Shown here one piece after another: positions 5,987 to 61,988 of a stretch of DNA of 64,000 nt. The translations under genes and the position numbers were made by a program. This stretch comes from Escherichia phage vB_EcoM-ZQ1. The notes under the pieces were generated by a model. It saw nothing but the letters and a program-made list of their open reading frames with translations, did not search any database and had not been told where the DNA came from. The DNA is taken from sequence record MW650886.1; one strand, written 5' to 3'. Position 1 is the first letter of the stretch. Each line of letters begins with the position of its first letter.

Positions 5987-6475
5987 ATGATGCTGTTAAT
6001 GAGCGTTCCACAGAACAAGATGACCCCTGCAACAGAGGGCAAGAATCACTTCAACATCTACAGCCGGAGCCAGACGGAACTCGGGCGCTTCCTCTCGCAT
6101 TTTACCCATCATCCAATGACTACCCATGAACATGGTGTGTTTAACTCCATGGAGGGGTACTGGTATTGGCTGAAGTATAGGGATGACAACCTGCGCCTGC
6201 TCGACGGTTATGAGGCCAAGCAATATGGACAGGGATTGGCGGCTTCCCGCGTCATTGTCCTGGACCCGTCTACCGAAGAATTCAAGCGCGATATCCTATT
6301 TGCAACTAGCATGAAACTCCAGACAATGCCTGAACGTCTGAAGATCAGATTGGCGTACAGTCGCCTACCCCTGATCCATGCATATGTTCAGAACGGGAAA
6401 TACAGTTTTCAAAACTCTATGGACTATATCATTGCCCACATTAATCGTCTCCGCATACAAGGAACTTTGAAATGA
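5987..6475 (+). CDS. hypothetical protein
   Basis: ORF track begins at TTG 5972; first ATG is at 5987. Confidence 0.45.
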   Translation: MMLLMSVPQNKMTPATEGKNHFNIYSRSQTELGRFLSHFTHHPMTTHEHGVFNSMEGYWYWLKYRDDNLRLLDGYEAKQYGQGLAASRVIVLDPSTEEFKRDILFATSMKLQTMPERLKIRLAYSRLPLIHAYVQNGKYSFQNSMDYIIAHINRLRIQGTLK

Positions 6476-55435: not shown

Positions 55436-55787
55436 TTACGACAGCTGCTTCAGTTTGTAGATCGTCTGATAGCACAGCGTCTTGATTTCATCAAGTGTGT
55501 TCTGAAGGTGGGAGTCACACTGCTTGTAGATGCCATCTACGTCTATCACCACACTGTTAATATAGGAGATAGGGTCTGGGTTGTACAATTTGATATTCTC
55601 GAATGATGGAACATACTGGCCACCCGCACCGATGTATGCTTCGGTAAACGTGTCCAGCAAGTCCTCTAGATCCCCGTAGAACTCCCCGAGTGCCTTGTGC
55701 TTGGCATAGGACGTTGTAACGAAGTGTAAGGCATGAGAGTGGGCTATAGCAAGCAGTCCACGGTTGATGAAAATACTCGCATTGACC
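55436..55787 (-). CDS. hypothetical protein (possible four-helix ferritin/Dps-like fold; weak)
   Basis: ATG at 55787 with GAGGA RBS; ORF-track start at 55843 lies inside a terminator hairpin. Confidence 0.4.
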
Positions 55788-55799
55788 ATGATGTTGTCC

Positions 55800-55832
55800 T
55801 CAGAAAAAGAAATCCCCCTGTATTTAAGGGGG
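55800..55832 (-). terminator. rho-independent terminator on the minus strand (atccccc-loop-gggggat then TTCTTTTTCT)
   Basis: read directly, downstream of the stop at 55875. Confidence 0.55.
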
Positions 55833-55874
55833 ATTGTAATCACTGCTTGACAAGAACCATCTTGATGGTTTCAC

Positions 55875-56180
55875 TTAGTCTTTGTCGGCAGACTTGCCAA
55901 AGAAGAATTCGAAACCGTCATGGACAGCAACGACTTCCTGACCTTGGGAGATACCGTGAGTCTGGTCTGGGGTCAGCTTCACCTTGATGGTGTTGCCATC
56001 GGTTAACTCCAGGTTGTAGACATCCGCCTGATTGTCAGGAGTGATCTGGGTCACGGTAGCGCCGGAACACCACTGAGTGCCATCAGCTTGTTTGGTGATG
56101 GATACGGTCTTACCCTGGACACCAGCATGGGTCTGAGGTTTAGCGGCTTGTTCTTTAAAATATTCGATAAACGGTTTCAT
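55875..56180 (-). CDS. late-promoter-driven small protein (virion component candidate)
   Basis: 101 aa; exact TATAAATA about 24 nt upstream, GGAG RBS, own terminator downstream. Confidence 0.45.
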   Translation of the reverse strand: MKPFIEYFKEQAAKPQTHAGVQGKTVSITKQADGTQWCSGATVTQITPDNQADVYNLELTDGNTIKVKLTPDQTHGISQGQEVVAVHDGFEFFFGKSADKD

Positions 56181-56236: not shown

Positions 56237-59200
56237 TCAGATCTTAATCTGCATGTTGCCACCCAGGGACTGCTCGTACTCGCTGTATGCGCCTTCCCCG
56301 TAGTCTCGTGCCCACTGGTCAGACTGCTGGGCGCTATCCAGAGTCATCAGGTTTGGTTCAGTCGGGTTGTAACCCTTGGACTTCGCATCCCGGTACAGAG
56401 TCTGCAGGTACTGGTTGGCGCGGTCAATCTGAGCTTTGAACTCGCGATATGCCCCTTCAGTTGTGTTGCGGCGGAAGGTGATATCCCAGTCCACGTTCAG
56501 AGTCTGACCATCACGGCTTGCATAGATCTGCCAATCCAGGTCGCGGCCTTTTGGTGCGTTGTCGCGGATGGAGTCGGCGTATGCCGCAAGGTCGTCCTTC
56601 GGATTGTGCGACGTGCTTTTCAGAAGTAGTGCATGACCCATACCACCGTTTGGCTCAAGAGACCATTTTCCTGTTTCTCTTCCCAGGCGTTCTATGTTGT
56701 TGAGTTGGTTTATCGACAATTCAGAAGAGTCAAATAATACCACATCACGTTTTTTGGGGGTTCTCACATAAGGGGTGAGATCAATGTCGATCATCCGGTT
56801 TATAAATTCTACCACTTCAGCTTGTTTCTTTGGCAATGTGGTATTGATATCCGGCTTGTTTGCCACTTTCTCTAGGCGTTTATTTTCTGCGCTTATCATG
56901 GACAGCATAATTTGTGTAACTTTGCCGTCAGACAAGTTGTAATCATTCCAAATCACTTCACCTTTATCCGTGATGGTTATATCGTTCAAGAACACCTGGT
57001 TTGGGTTGTATGACTGACTTTTCAACTGTTGGAGGTTTCTGGAAAGATATACCATTTTTGATGAAATCTCATCAATCACACTCTGGACCATATCTTTGTT
57101 TAAAGGAAGTTCATATGTCTTCGGATTGTTCAGGGTACGCCCTTTCTGAGAGACAATTGGGGTGAATGCAACTTTACCTTTGTCGTAGTAATAGGTCACG
57201 TTGGTTATCATAGAAGTACCGGCGTATTTTCCCGTTTCGGGGAAATTGACATCCCACCGAATGGACATGCCGTTGACAGTCTCACCAAACACCATGGCGT
57301 TGCTTGGTATCTTCAGGGTTCCAGAGTTGACCAGATCAGCGCCTTGGGCATTCAGGTCGATAGAACCATAGATAGCCCCGGTAATACGATCTTTCAACAT
57401 CAGGGTCTTGTCGCCCTTCTCTGGGATGATTTCCAGCGGGTGCTTGCCACGCGGAGGTTCTTTGATGAGTTCCAGTAGAGCAGTTTTCCCTGGTTTCACA
57501 CGATTCAGGACAGCGTCGGACACTGTCAGAGTCCAGTTTGCGGTTTCCACATAACCCCAGCCCCGAGAACGGCGAATGGCTTTGATAGGATATGGAGCGC
57601 TTGTTGGCACTGCGCTAATTTCCCATTTGCCAGTGTACTGGGTCTTGGCAACCTCAAAGATGGACGCAATTACTGCATTGGCGACGTCACGGGCGCTACC
57701 TTTGGCCACGTTCTCCTCTTCAGCAATTTCGCTGAAAACTGAGTATTGAACGAAACCAGCGAGGACGTTTGTGAAGTTGACAACGATAACCAACCCGCCT
57801 GCTGTCGTGTAACGACCAGCGCCCACACGACGGATGTTTTCACCAGGAAGAATAGAAGTGTCCAACCCAACGTTGGTATCAATGATACCCAGAACACGAG
57901 CGATGAAACCACTGTCACGTAATTGATCAACACTGGTTGCACCCTCGGTCGAATCCGATGCGGATTTAGACACTTTGTTCAACTTGATAGAGACAAGGGT
58001 TTCCCCGTTGACACCGATGATATCCCATTCAGTACCCTGCTCGTTCGAGGTGCGGGCAATCTTGCGCTTTGAATTGATGGCACCTTCGTAACGCCCGTTC
58101 TTGACCACAACAGAGGCAGTAGCAGCATCAGTCGCACTTGCTGCATTTGAAAAGTCTGGGTCAGAAATACTGATGTCGACGTCACCGTTTTGAGAACGCA
58201 TGCGAACACCGTTTTTGAATCGTTCAACGTTTACTTCTCGAGCACCAAGTCGTTTGGCATCAATAACAGCAGTTCCAGAACCGATAATGTTGGCTGGGTT
58301 ATTTCTGTCTGAACTGTTTTGAGAACCTTTCCAAAATTTTGTAGACGCCATGGTGAAATCATTCAGGATATTGATAGGGACTTGCGGTAATTTCAACTGA
58401 CGAGCAATGAAATCAGCACTTTGCCCACGCACAGGTTTCTCATTCATGTATGCGCCAACATACACGCCCGGCTCATTGTAGTGGGGAGCGATATTTGCCG
58501 TGTTCGTGCGGCCTCTCTCCTTACCAGCCCATAACAACATGGGCTGATCCCCGTTTGAAGTTAATTTCCATCCGTTGCCATTGCTGGTGTCATTGCTGGT
58601 GTCATTGCTGGTGTCAACGTCCACCACCAGAATTATCTGAGCACCTTTCTTGAAAGTGTACTGATCGTACATACCTTTCTTCTGTTTGGTCATGGACGCA
58701 CCGACCAAGTCTTGGTTGGTGAAGCCGCGCTTCATATTCCAAGATACCTCAGTCCCGTCTGGATATTTGTCAAAATCATAACCATAGAATGTGGCTACTT
58801 CTTTCGAACCGCTTATCAGACGGACGTAATTTCCACGAATCGGGTCTCGCCCGCTCTTCAACTCCAGACCAGTGTCCGAGCTGTTGTACCACTCGCGGTT
58901 GACTTCTATTTCAGAAGAACCAGCCCCAACTCCCACATCCGGAGTATTGTTCTGAACCGGAACGTCACCGACTTTGTCTGGATCATCCCAGGTGATACCC
59001 TGCATCTTCGGACCGTCGAATACCTGAGCCGGATCTTTACCCTTACGAACTAGCCACACATAACCACGGTCAGGAACAGGCGCGTAGGTCAGGTCCATGA
59101 CGTTCAGTTTCTGCTTCAGGCCGGACTGGCGGATGATCTTAGGAATCAGGGTCATACCGCGATCCAGCGCTTTCTTAGAGAAGTTGACAGCAAAGCCATC

Positions 59201-59527
59201 GATGGTCTTACCCAGAGGGGTCGCCATGAATTGTTTGGTCGCTTCGATCATGGAAGCGATAACGCGCATTGGGTTCTTGAAGCGAGCGATGGCGTCAGGA
59301 TAGACGGAGCCGCGCTTCTGGCCGATGAAAACCTGACGAACGCTCTTGCCCAGCCCCTGAGGAGTATAGAACTGAATGCGGTATTCCTTATCATCTTCGT
59401 CGACGAAGGTAAAGAACACATCGCCTGCGTTCTTCTTACCCATGGTCAGCTCATACGGAGCGGAGTTGAACGCTTCGTCTAACTGATCTCTTTCCTGCAT
59501 GAACTGGAGGAAACTTAGCTTTGACAT
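56237..59527 (-). CDS. large hypothetical protein (1096 aa), possibly virion-associated
   Basis: long uninterrupted ORF with AGGAGAT RBS; contains in-frame (TSND)n repeat; no catalytic motif recognised. Confidence 0.6.
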   Translation of the reverse strand: MSKLSFLQFMQERDQLDEAFNSAPYELTMGKKNAGDVFFTFVDEDDKEYRIQFYTPQGLGKSVRQVFIGQKRGSVYPDAIARFKNPMRVIASMIEATKQFMATPLGKTIDGFAVNFSKKALDRGMTLIPKIIRQSGLKQKLNVMDLTYAPVPDRGYVWLVRKGKDPAQVFDGPKMQGITWDDPDKVGDVPVQNNTPDVGVGAGSSEIEVNREWYNSSDTGLELKSGRDPIRGNYVRLISGSKEVATFYGYDFDKYPDGTEVSWNMKRGFTNQDLVGASMTKQKKGMYDQYTFKKGAQIILVVDVDTSNDTSNDTSNGNGWKLTSNGDQPMLLWAGKERGRTNTANIAPHYNEPGVYVGAYMNEKPVRGQSADFIARQLKLPQVPINILNDFTMASTKFWKGSQNSSDRNNPANIIGSGTAVIDAKRLGAREVNVERFKNGVRMRSQNGDVDISISDPDFSNAASATDAATASVVVKNGRYEGAINSKRKIARTSNEQGTEWDIIGVNGETLVSIKLNKVSKSASDSTEGATSVDQLRDSGFIARVLGIIDTNVGLDTSILPGENIRRVGAGRYTTAGGLVIVVNFTNVLAGFVQYSVFSEIAEEENVAKGSARDVANAVIASIFEVAKTQYTGKWEISAVPTSAPYPIKAIRRSRGWGYVETANWTLTVSDAVLNRVKPGKTALLELIKEPPRGKHPLEIIPEKGDKTLMLKDRITGAIYGSIDLNAQGADLVNSGTLKIPSNAMVFGETVNGMSIRWDVNFPETGKYAGTSMITNVTYYYDKGKVAFTPIVSQKGRTLNNPKTYELPLNKDMVQSVIDEISSKMVYLSRNLQQLKSQSYNPNQVFLNDITITDKGEVIWNDYNLSDGKVTQIMLSMISAENKRLEKVANKPDINTTLPKKQAEVVEFINRMIDIDLTPYVRTPKKRDVVLFDSSELSINQLNNIERLGRETGKWSLEPNGGMGHALLLKSTSHNPKDDLAAYADSIRDNAPKGRDLDWQIYASRDGQTLNVDWDITFRRNTTEGAYREFKAQIDRANQYLQTLYRDAKSKGYNPTEPNLMTLDSAQQSDQWARDYGEGAYSEYEQSLGGNMQIKI
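58579..58614. repeat. 12-bp tandem repeat, three perfect copies (cattgctggtgt), in frame inside the 1096-aa ORF, encoding (TSND)3
   Basis: copies at 58579-58590, 58591-58602, 58603-58614 with partial copies flanking. Confidence 0.8.
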
Positions 59528-59602
59528 TTTATATCTCCTGATTGAATTAATGGCGGTTTCTTCTAATTAGCGAAACCAAAAGGGAGCGTCAGCCCCCTTA
59601 TC

Positions 59603-60044: not shown

Positions 60045-60683
60045 TTACGGCGTCGGATTCACAACCGGAATGTGGGATCGAATACCTGCGATGATGTCCT
60101 TCAGCCGAGGATTCCATCCACCCACCAAACGGGGGAGAGCGATAGCGCCAGGCTGGACCAAAATGATGTCGCTGCCTGTGATATTGTGCTGAGGGAACTG
60201 AGCAAGGTACTGCTCCATGGCGACACCCTCATCAATCAGAACAGGACCGACATCAGATGACGCGTAGGTTGCACCCAGACCGTCAACGCCCCATGCCAAG
60301 ATACCCCAGTCAGGGATGTTGGCTTCAGATGTGATGGTGAATCCAAACACGGTGTTCAGCGAAGTAAAGGAATAGACATCGTGGGTGATGTCATACACCA
60401 GATACCCCTTGGCCAGCATATCGGCAAAGATCGCGTCCGTATCGCCAACAGCCGGAGTCGGCACAGTAAACAACAGCTCGCCATCAGGAGGAGCAGGATA
60501 CGTGCCGAGGGCATAGAGGCACCATGCATCAATGCACTTCTTAATGAACGCCTCTGGCGCGACATAATCAGCAAGGCGAACCGTACCTGAGTACTCTGAT
60601 ACGATAATGCCTTCCTTCGCACCCTGTAGAGCAATGAAGACCAAGATATGTTCATATCCGGCCTGAGATGGAGTGATGTTCAT
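60045..60683 (-). CDS. hypothetical protein
   Basis: start set at ATG 60683 (MNITPSQ...), TGATG-coupled to the upstream gene stop; ORF-track start 60779 overlaps the upstream CDS. Confidence 0.4.
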   Translation of the reverse strand: MNITPSQAGYEHILVFIALQGAKEGIIVSEYSGTVRLADYVAPEAFIKKCIDAWCLYALGTYPAPPDGELLFTVPTPAVGDTDAIFADMLAKGYLVYDITHDVYSFTSLNTVFGFTITSEANIPDWGILAWGVDGLGATYASSDVGPVLIDEGVAMEQYLAQFPQHNITGSDIILVQPGAIALPRLVGGWNPRLKDIIAGIRSHIPVVNPTP

Positions 60684-61297
60684 TATCTTGTCCTCTTCAG
60701 TTTCTCTATTGTGTGCTTGTTCATGGCGATCACCTGAGGATCTACCTCGGAGATGGTCCGGCCTTCGAAAGACACACATTTCTGAAGATATTTAGCTTTC
60801 TTCACGACGTCGGCAGCATAAGCGTTCGATGCAGGATTACGGGCGAAGCCAGCATTGTAAGAGGAGAGGGATTTGCGGATATTCTGATTGTGATAGGTCA
60901 GCCAGAACTGCATCTCATCGAGGGCGGCTTGCGCGGCATATTCTTGGTCGGTCAGCAACTTTATGGCGACATTGGCATAGCACTTGCGATTCTTACAACC
61001 TTCGCGATCACCAACTGTCTTCACCTTGTTCTGAAAGGCTCCCATGTTGGCCGCCTTGAGACCGTATCGCATTGACACTACATCTTCACCAGCGCGGCTC
61101 TCTCGCCAAGATATGGCGGCCAGAGTGTAGCCAAGATCTTGTGTCTTGCCTACGTGATAGGCGGTTGCCATCGTATTAAGTTGTTGCTCGGAGAAATTAT
61201 AAACACATTGACTTGTATTTTGGGAAGCGTGCACATTCCCGCTGGCAATGGTAAAGGTCACGGACAAGGCCATGGCCTTCAACGTTGTCATCGTCAT
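60683..61297 (-). CDS. soluble lytic transglycosylase (SLT-domain) with N-terminal signal peptide
   Basis: N-terminal signal-like MTMTTLKAMALSVTFTIASGNVHAS; SLT motifs ISWRESRAGED (E-S) and SSYNAGFA (Y-N-x-G). Confidence 0.55.
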   Translation of the reverse strand: MTMTTLKAMALSVTFTIASGNVHASQNTSQCVYNFSEQQLNTMATAYHVGKTQDLGYTLAAISWRESRAGEDVVSMRYGLKAANMGAFQNKVKTVGDREGCKNRKCYANVAIKLLTDQEYAAQAALDEMQFWLTYHNQNIRKSLSSYNAGFARNPASNAYAADVVKKAKYLQKCVSFEGRTISEVDPQVIAMNKHTIEKLKRTR

Positions 61298-61393: not shown

Positions 61394-61678
61394 TCATTCG
61401 TAGATGAGGTGGTAGGATTCCTCGATACACTCCAGCCAGCCATAGACGAACTGTAGAGGGTCATCCCATGCCGTCTTGGTCGCGACGGTAAAGTTGCCGT
61501 CCAGGATCTGCATATCTTGGTACTTGTTGAAAGCGAGTACAGCATCAACCACAATCAGGCCGCCCTGCTCAAGATAACGATTCGGAGTGACGGCCACTTG
61601 GTAACGAGGATTCCTGTGATTCCATATCTCCACAGCAATGTCACAGGAATCCTGAATTTCATCTTTGGTTTCTGACAT
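61394..61678 (-). CDS. hypothetical protein
   Basis: 94-aa ORF. Confidence 0.4.
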   Translation of the reverse strand: MSETKDEIQDSCDIAVEIWNHRNPRYQVAVTPNRYLEQGGLIVVDAVLAFNKYQDMQILDGNFTVATKTAWDDPLQFVYGWLECIEESYHLIYE

Positions 61679-61988
61679 ACGTTTGTCTCAGGTGTTCAGT
61701 AAAGGATTTACCCAGCTTGCGGAATAGTTTAATACGACCAATGACTTTGACGTAAACATCTCCGTGGCAGGGGCGTGGCTTACACCAGCACCCCAATACC
61801 TTCCCGTCAAGCTCAAGGAGTTCATCCTCGGTGATATCCCCTTCAATCAGGCGCACATACAGGTCTTCTTCAAACAGTTCGATACAGACGCCTCGTCCAT
61901 GGTCTTTGACCTCAAATGGGTTCCCCCATTTACCAGGCCGACCAATGTAGACGTCATATGGCTCCTTCTTGAAGTGGACGACTTTCAT
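61659..61988 (-). CDS. conserved hypothetical protein (GRPGKWGNPF motif)
   Basis: 109-aa ORF; ATGA-coupled to the upstream micro-ORF. Confidence 0.4.
   Translation of the reverse strand: MKVVHFKKEPYDVYIGRPGKWGNPFEVKDHGRGVCIELFEEDLYVRLIEGDITEDELLELDGKVLGCWCKPRPCHGDVYVKVIGRIKLFRKLGKSFTEHLRQTYVRNQR

Follow-up and report, generated by a model that had tools for sequence, protein, structure and literature searches.

The question raised by the stretch of Escherichia phage vB_EcoM-ZQ1 DNA analysed here (64,000 nucleotides of record MW650886.1; 'the window' in what follows) is what its largest gene is for. This gene lies at 56237..59527 on the minus strand, a strand that the original prediction (an earlier reading of the sequence by itself) had not named, and encodes a protein of 1096 amino acids (aa), 121.6 kDa in mass with an isoelectric point (pI) of 8.5. 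It starts with an ATG, 8 nt upstream of which is AGGAG, and ends with a TGA at 56239-56237; the next largest complete open reading frame (ORF) in the window encodes 760 aa. The original prediction had remarked on this size and on the absence of any motif that could be placed. Both remarks hold. The whole protein finds no significant assignment among Pfam, NCBIfam, PADLOC or PDB sequences, a profile of 61 homologues finds none among PDB sequences, and a search of the window for internal repeats or paralogues of the protein gave none. The protein is a member of phrog_3867 (E=0), a family of unknown function. The best reading of the evidence is that this is a packaged protein of an already known kind in a new form, led by a domain like that at the N-terminus of T4 Alt and followed by a novel, shuffled cargo, and that it works like Alt and the internal proteins of the T-even phages.

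The window belongs to the Ackermannviridae, subfamily Aglimvirinae, and is Agtrevirus-like within the ViI-like phages; its closest relative, Escherichia phage YX22, is 97% identical over 14 kb. The original prediction had reasoned from T4-like phages, which needs correction: the phage is related to T4 in its head and late-transcription genes but, strictly speaking, is not T4-like. Biocontrol and therapy make wide use of the Ackermannviridae (ViI, CBA120, Kuttervirus, Agtrevirus, Limestonevirus). The large gene sits between homologues of the gp46/47 recombination nuclease and the gp61 primase, and a tblastn search detects it in 357 records of phages, of which almost all are Ackermannviridae, with orthologues of 640 to 1208 aa. 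Among the matches listed, the product is 'hypothetical' in all but one, the exception being a 'putative tail completion protein'; none of the records listed annotates a link to Alt, nor does any homologue listed come with a precomputed Pfam domain.

Virion association and the N-terminal domain

Orthologues of the 1096-aa protein show some of the highest peptide or spectral counts in the virion proteomics of Ackermannviridae. The LIMEstone1 annotation divides the orthologue between two ORFs, ORF082 and ORF081, both of them 'confirmed structural proteins' (PMC3296691). ORF081 was found with 23 unique peptides and 55% coverage, and only the tail sheath was higher (PMC3296691). The gene is split by a frameshift within the N-terminal domain, at about 6308-6312 of HE600015. 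The near-identical relative PP35 has a single 531-aa ORF in its place, and the split is probably a sequencing or annotation artefact. In Sajous1 virions purified on caesium chloride (CsCl), gp214, named 'tail completion protein', was detected with 196 spectra, which puts it in the top five proteins by representation (PMC10892097). That gp214 is the orthologue follows from a gene order (RegB, two small genes, large gene, TOBE-like, ferritin-like) shared with FrontPhageNews, together with the matching family hits of the downstream genes in the window. Sajous1 virions also contain the prohead protease (PMC10892097). The papers on PP35, phiD3, AG3 and CBA120 hold no proteomic data on the orthologue, and a literature search turned up no structure of a whole Ackermannviridae virion. 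The 1096-aa protein is almost certainly a virion protein. Absence from virions combined with similarity to a non-structural enzyme had been named beforehand as grounds for abandoning a virion role; orthologues are present in virions, and the protein resembles no non-structural enzyme.

The first part of the protein gives the clue to how it may enter the virion. Residues 19-180 (58988..59473, minus strand; pI 9.8) form a domain for which AlphaFold2, given a 57-sequence alignment, predicts an alpha/beta fold (pLDDT 90.4, pTM 0.84) with a weak GNAT-like resemblance. When this model is compared with BFVD by Foldseek, the matches after its own family are Alt proteins encoded by T4-like phages (E 1.7e-6 to 2.7e-4, TMq 0.57-0.64), including those of HY03 and phiAS5 (E 1.7e-6), SP18 (TMq 0.64), CF1, Henu6 and Melville. 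The Melville match is an Alt N-terminal part of 323 aa, 63% identical to residues 1-200 of T4 Alt and too short to hold an ADP-ribosyltransferase (ART) domain. The same relationship emerges from hhalign, in which the family profile (A4) and a profile of ten Alt N-termini from diverse Straboviridae (A7) align over 158 columns with a probability of 96.8% and an E-value of 2.2e-10, pairing residues 14-177 with residues 2-179 of T4 Alt. Judged by these profile and model comparisons, residues 14-177 and the domain at the N-terminus of T4 Alt are homologues, members of a family that newer releases of Pfam carry as PF26846, and we propose that the domain is a module for targeting the head core.

The alignment extends to a putative processing site. 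The phage T4 prohead protease, gp21, cuts after L/I-X-E (PMC9026906), and the predicted propeptide of the 1096-aa protein, residues 1-18 (MSKLSFLQFMQERDQLDE; 59474..59527, minus strand), ends in such a motif, L16-D17-E18, followed by A19. With the slash marking the point of cleavage, hhalign lays L16-D17-E18/A19-F20 on I4-T5-E6/L7-F8 of T4 Alt, whose record (X15811) annotates the post-translational removal of six residues. The consensus at the site reads LNE-VFD in the Alt profile and L-x-E-AF(N/D) in the query family. The L-x-E18 motif is kept in all 59 aligned sequences (alignment A5), and conservation of E18 across the wider N-domain family is 90% or more; the other [LI]xE sites of the protein are poorly conserved and fall within its module E, described later. 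As the E18 motif is both conserved and aligned with the Alt site, cleavage after L16-D17-E18 is a specific prediction.

The N-terminal domain is not confined to this protein. In an exhaustive sequence search covering 1.84 billion representatives, the first ~180 residues were found at the head of about 80 clusters of proteins, 300-1439 aa long, with unrelated C-termini. PF03496, the T4 Alt ADP-ribosyltransferase family, is present in five of the 62 N-domain proteins scanned. One of its bearers (P0185) and an adjacent N-domain paralogue (P0179) are encoded on a T4-like contig beside genes for Gp23, scaffold, Peptidase_S77, portal, tube, sheath and terminase. In Vibrio Ackermannviridae, a pair of neighbouring paralogues has only the N-domain in common. 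Two further BFVD matches, A0A6J5KPZ7 and A0A6J5LH38, are uncultured-phage proteins with cytidine/deoxycytidylate deaminase and ParB/sulfiredoxin annotations, from which the range of cargo on the Alt-type domain would appear to be broader than ADP-ribosyltransferases. The Alt-N-like fold was also seen in small proteins of the jumbo Agrobacterium phage Atu_ph07.

Modules of the cargo

Behind the N-terminal domain, the BLAST map of the orthologues is a mosaic in which only the N-terminal ~200 aa are universal. In the query (all coordinates on the minus strand), an acidic linker at aa 181-233 (58829..58987; pI 4.1, pLDDT 23-33), predicted to be disordered, is followed by six modules. Module B (aa 234-305, 58613..58828) is beta-rich, modelled with low confidence and marked by a TSNDTSNDTSNGNG repeat; it is variable, being displaced or duplicated in some orthologues. 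Module C (aa 306-412, 58292..58612) has beta strands and helices and is 62% identical in CBA120 orf111, and module D (aa 413-520, 57968..58291) is again beta-rich and missing from about half of the orthologues. Modules B, C and D are thus variously present, absent, displaced or duplicated. Module E (aa 521-889, 56861..57967) is an alpha/beta core conserved in the orthologues from phages of Enterobacteriaceae. Module F (aa 890-972, 56612..56860) and the acidic C-terminal domain, module G (aa 973-1096, 56240..56611; pLDDT 80-94), are optional. Even the orthologue of the closest relative, YX22, is without module G. The LIMEstone1 orthologue has only the N-domain, a weak C-like stretch and module G, and CBA120 orf111 has the N-domain, C, E at 35% identity and G. 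In several orthologues (among P0001, P0011, P0053, P0108 and P0119), a segment corresponding to aa ~197-316, comprising module B and the linker, is relocated or doubled, lying either after an unrelated insert of ~70-200 aa or beside a second, diverged copy of itself; the disordered linker region is therefore a site of recombination.

In the full-length model (pLDDT 73), the acidic linker is disordered at 185-255, and confidence is low for module B, moderate for C, D and F (pLDDT 50-74) and high for E and G. A Foldseek search of the PDB gave no match at E ≤ 1e-3 and no fold match for module E, but the query was the whole multi-domain model, so that similarities at the level of single modules could have been missed. 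The original prediction had suggested looking for ADP-ribosyltransferase or depolymerase folds in the middle and C-terminal regions, and neither was found. PF03496 gives no match to the protein even at E ≤ 1, a test in which T4 Alt scores 5.8e-36, and when the window is searched by tblastn with the ART domain of Alt, the best E-value is 0.44. A tailspike or depolymerase finds no Pfam or PDB fold match, and the model has no long beta-helix. A tail completion or tail terminator protein of the T4 gp3/gp15 type was also considered, and no sequence or fold homology to one was detected.

As for the mature part of the protein, it is module F only that belongs to a known internal-protein family. It matches phrog_7673, annotated as 'internal head protein', with an E-value of 4.4e-10 at aa 900-954, and is 48% identical to SYGD1_189 of a Tequatrovirus, a 90-aa protein that matches this family over its full length (E 1.6e-53). 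SYGD1_189 begins with MKTFKEFINE followed by A, which is a capsid targeting sequence (CTS) of the T4 type, and the next gene begins with one too. The gene for SYGD1_189 comes just after the dNMP-kinase and tail-fibre-chaperone genes, which is the position of ipI on the T4 map.

In module G, R1019-R1020 and Y1081-S-E-Y-E1085, within the motifs TFRRNT and YSEYEQSLGG, are invariant, and this conservation suggests a specific interaction. The module recurs in distant proteins, 51 clusters in all, where it makes up stand-alone proteins 110-300 aa long or forms the C-termini of other N-domain proteins. A putative protease site, [LIVM]xE[AMSGT], occurs within the first 18 aa of 21 of the 44 relatives of module G, compared with 4.7% of control windows, although the p-value of this enrichment is inflated because the relatives are akin to each other. 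Leaders such as MKTFKEFVKES and MKLTxLxEMAAK are examples. One relative, P0222, carries KMPT-N (PF20294), a polyvalent-protein domain. The contexts of the stand-alone module G genes are short and uninformative. Six of the stand-alone proteins (P0193, P0194, P0203, P0217, P0227 and P0251) share the leader MKLxxLxEMAAKK and, after it, a Cys-rich, zinc-ribbon-like segment, CxKCGKTMAANHYWYKGGWxCK, between the putative protease site and the G domain.

Proposed delivery and competing explanations

The link to the packaging domain of Alt leads to a concrete model of head targeting, cleavage at E18 and ejection. The protein would be synthesized late in infection and brought by its Alt-type N-domain (aa 19-180) into the scaffolding core of the prohead. 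There, a gp21-type prohead protease would trim it after L16-D17-E18, leaving A19 as the mature N-terminus (AFNSAPYELTMGK), and the trimmed protein, probably in tens of copies or more, would remain in the DNA-filled head. It would then exit along with the DNA and enter the host cell. The cargo, made up of the flexible acidic linker and the six modules B to G, which are gained, lost and shuffled between related phages, would most likely act as soon as infection begins, and would do so not as a catalyst but by binding targets of host defence or takeover, or by neutralising them. We infer the location in the head, the cleavage at E18, the ejection and any anti-defence role of the cargo, but not with equal confidence. 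It is likely that the protein is head-internal by virtue of its Alt-type domain; that it is ejected and has a takeover or anti-defence role stands at about an even chance. The combined description, a head-internal ejection protein of an Ackermannviridae phage built on the T4 Alt delivery chassis with variable cargo, is on balance the probable one. The original prediction had offered an injected internal protein or a tail-associated enzyme: the first is favoured by the virion orthologues, the Alt N-domain and module F, and the second found no support.

T4 Alt itself is a protein of the prohead core, present in about 40 copies and ejected into the host (PMC9026906). The query shares with it a homologous N-terminal domain of about 160 residues, a short N-terminal propeptide (predicted in the query) ending in L/I-x-E at an aligned position, presence in the virion and a layout of N-domain, long variable region and cargo. 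It differs in that its predicted propeptide is 18 aa long rather than 6 aa, its gene lies between the gp46 and primase homologues rather than next to gene 30, and its cargo is about 900 aa of shuffled modules without an ART domain. As the defining ART domain was tested for and is absent, the protein is not an Alt orthologue. Nor is it a classical internal protein. The internal proteins of T4 are diverse defence proteins with only the CTS in common (PMC3012670), and the query resembles IPI, IPII and IPIII of the T-even phages in the high variability of its cargo between close relatives and in module F, whose family, phrog_7673, has a T-even member bearing a CTS. However, the T-even internal proteins are single-domain proteins of 8-20 kDa with a CTS of 10-19 aa, whereas the query carries several modules, 121 kDa in all, behind a folded Alt-type domain of 160 aa. 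A 10-19 aa CTS of the MKTYQEFIAE type was not recognised: all that MSKLSFLQFMQERDQLDE has in common with this sequence is the L-x-E at its end and a loose pattern of aromatic residues, and the relative with which it aligns is Alt rather than the internal proteins. The lack of a short CTS and the 121-kDa size set the protein apart from the classical family.

Two more distant parallels deserve mention. Polyvalent proteins of phages and conjugative elements, of which DarB of P1 is an example, were reportedly described by Iyer et al. in 2017. They contain several recognisable enzymatic domains (methylase, helicase, peptidase, ART). The query is like them in its large multi-module layout, in DNA-linked delivery, as proposed here, and in a module shuffling typical of conflict systems, but is unlike them in that no recognisable enzymatic domain was detected. 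In phiKZ and SPN3US, paralogous families of head-internal proteins are cut after glutamate by a gp21-related protease and then ejected (PMC9026906). Head-internal location, processing at glutamate and ejection are all proposed for the query too; the phiKZ and SPN3US proteins, however, have a different cleavage motif and form an inner body, and no sequence or fold similarity between them and the query was detected.

Several observations weigh against a head-internal ejection protein, in addition to the inflated enrichment of leaders among the relatives of module G. The similarity to Alt is insignificant in BLASTP (E 0.3), in a comparison of the family HMM with the single T4 Alt sequence (3.9 bits) and in hhalign against that sequence (5.8%); the homology rests on the profile-profile and predicted-structure comparisons. 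No more than four proteins were retrieved with the N-terminus of T4 Alt as query. A canonical late promoter was sought directly upstream of the large gene, between the hairpin at 59580 and the start codon, and none was found. The proteomics shows association with the virion only. At 121 kDa, the protein is far above the size of the T4 internal proteins. Inspection of module E for conservation gave no invariant polar residues, and this, together with the absence of a recognisable effector domain, makes an effector role a conjecture. The variable beta-rich modules would also be compatible with a protein exposed on the surface.

This last point leads to the view that the protein is an external component of the virion, either an accessory of the tail, neck or baseplate or a protein decorating the head, whose beta-rich modules bind the host surface and whose mosaicism reflects host range. 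Modules B to D are indeed mosaic and beta-rich, there are weak matches to an Ig-like/dockerin protein (E 0.022) and to the C-terminal domain of a lectin (E 0.19), the high spectral counts would suit a structural part present in many copies, and the FrontPhageNews and Sajous1 orthologues carry the name 'tail completion protein'. This name, however, stems from low-confidence threading, and no match to tail proteins was found among Pfam, PHROG or PDB sequences. The N-domain has its homologue, aligned protease site included, in a head-internal protein, the family of module F is one of CTS-bearing internal proteins, and the gene lies among replication genes, distant from the tail and tailspike cluster. 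An external location is therefore unlikely.

A second view, to which we give the same low weight, accepts a head-internal location but assigns the protein mainly to assembly or DNA condensation, like T4 IPIII or an accessory of the core or scaffold, with no effector function in the next host. The loss of IPIII slows the assembly of T4 heads (PMC9026906), and the protein is abundant in virions and mildly basic overall, with an N-domain of pI 9.8 and a core module E devoid of conserved catalytic-looking residues. Under such a role, one would not expect modules to be gained, lost and shuffled so extremely among close relatives, whose proteins range in length from 640 to 1208 aa, and the role sits poorly with the ADP-ribosyltransferase cargo carried elsewhere on the same N-domain, with the deaminase- and ParB-annotated Foldseek matches and with the strictly invariant RR...YSEYE of module G. 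The weakest alternative, a non-structural enzyme of the replication and recombination cluster (between gp46/47 and the primase) that contaminates virion preparations, would suit the neighbouring genes (gp47, gp46, RegB-like, primase, NrdA) and the few replication proteins detected at low coverage in LIMEstone1 virions, but is effectively excluded by the peptide counts (those given above for LIMEstone1 and Sajous1 are far higher than the contaminant level of one peptide and <5% coverage), quite apart from the homology to Alt and the lack of any detected enzyme family or fold.

If the protein is indeed ejected on an Alt-type chassis, then its significance may extend beyond this phage. It is tentatively suggested, at rather less than even odds, that the Alt N-domain is a general delivery chassis in Straboviridae, Ackermannviridae and their uncultured relatives, and that the cargo described here represents new families of injected counter-defence or takeover effectors. 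The main effector candidates would then be module G, with its invariant residues, and the conserved core E, and in Ackermannviridae the hypervariable locus would correspond to ipI of the T-even phages. Such a locus may decide which host strains the phage overcomes after adsorption, and so bears on the prediction of host range beyond the tailspikes. The Alt N-domain, which is natural and folded, could also take the place of the 10-residue T4 CTS where large foreign proteins are to be loaded into the heads of phages.

Flanking signals and neighbouring genes

The original prediction had placed a terminator immediately after the large gene and, following it, a late promoter that drives the next small gene. 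Each of these claims stands in part. A GC hairpin with a UUCG loop (56229-56212, minus strand; AAGCCCC-TTCG-GGGGCTT, 7 bp) starts 7 nt after the stop codon. It has a predicted RNA folding energy (dG) of -13.1 kcal/mol (z -2.5), and its core, AGCCCC...GGGGCT, is invariant across YX22, LIMEstone1 and CBA120. It has no U-tract, and a terminator scan did not flag it as terminator-like. The last base of the hairpin overlaps an exact late-promoter box of the T4 type, TATAAATA (56212-56205, minus strand), which lies 24 nt upstream of the next ATG and is followed by a Shine-Dalgarno sequence, GAGGAG (56192-56187), and the ATG (56180) of a 101-aa ORF on the same strand. The box occurs twice in the 64-kb window compared with 0.66 expected, a count reached in 16 of 100 shuffles; this is not beyond chance, and the weight of the box therefore comes from its position. 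LIMEstone1 has the exact TATAAATA at the same position, annotated as a putative late promoter. The position reads CTAATTAC in YX22 and CTAAATAC in CBA120, so that the exact form is found only in the window and LIMEstone1. From its sequence and placement, TATAAATA is a plausible late promoter, although YX22, the closest relative, does not keep it.

The gene upstream of the large one encodes 118 aa and ends in a hairpin (59599-59580, minus strand) that is terminator-like, has a T-run and lies 52 nt before the ATG of the large gene. The motif CTAATTA/CTAAATA is seen after GC hairpins in this upstream region (CGCTAATTAG, window positions 59560-59575, minus strand), and the intergenic regions of YX22 and CBA120 have CTAATTA/CTAAATA where the window has TATAAATA. 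This motif may represent a variant form of the late -10 element, specific to the family. A consensus for the late promoters of ViI-like phages has been reported as not established.

The 101-aa gene downstream (55875..56180, minus strand) is weakly TOBE-like (E 0.0012) and matches only positions 1-100 of the 189-position phrog_4048. Its counterparts in LIMEstone1 (ORF080, 189 aa, a virion protein) and CBA120 (181 aa) are full length, from which it appears that the lineage of the window, together with YX22, carries a half-length form. Next to it, at 55436-55843 (minus strand), is a small gene with DUF5856 (PF19174, E 1e-29) assigned to phrog_858, 'starvation-inducible regulator' (Dps/ferritin-like). 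The orthologue in LIMEstone1, ORF078, has been confirmed as a protein of the virion, and the authors of the Sajous1 study name the product ferritin. On the other side of the large gene, two genes at 60045-60683 and 60683-61297 (both minus strand) bring a DUF7270 protein (PF23934, E 3.5e-110) directly after a RegB-like gene (phrog_600, with a weak SLT match). The DUF7270 protein is the orthologue of LIMEstone1 virion protein ORF085, and RegB was detected in Sajous1 virions with 31 spectra. ORF078, ORF080 and ORF085 are all virion proteins of LIMEstone1 (PMC3296691) and, with ORF081 and ORF082, form a locus embedded among replication genes. The block from RegB to the ferritin-like gene may be a cassette of packaged proteins within the replication region. 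Between the gp46 homologue and the RegB-like gene lies a 109-aa ORF (61659-61988, minus strand) with DUF4326 (PF14216, E 1.6e-23), which is NrdA.1-like in the annotation of relatives.

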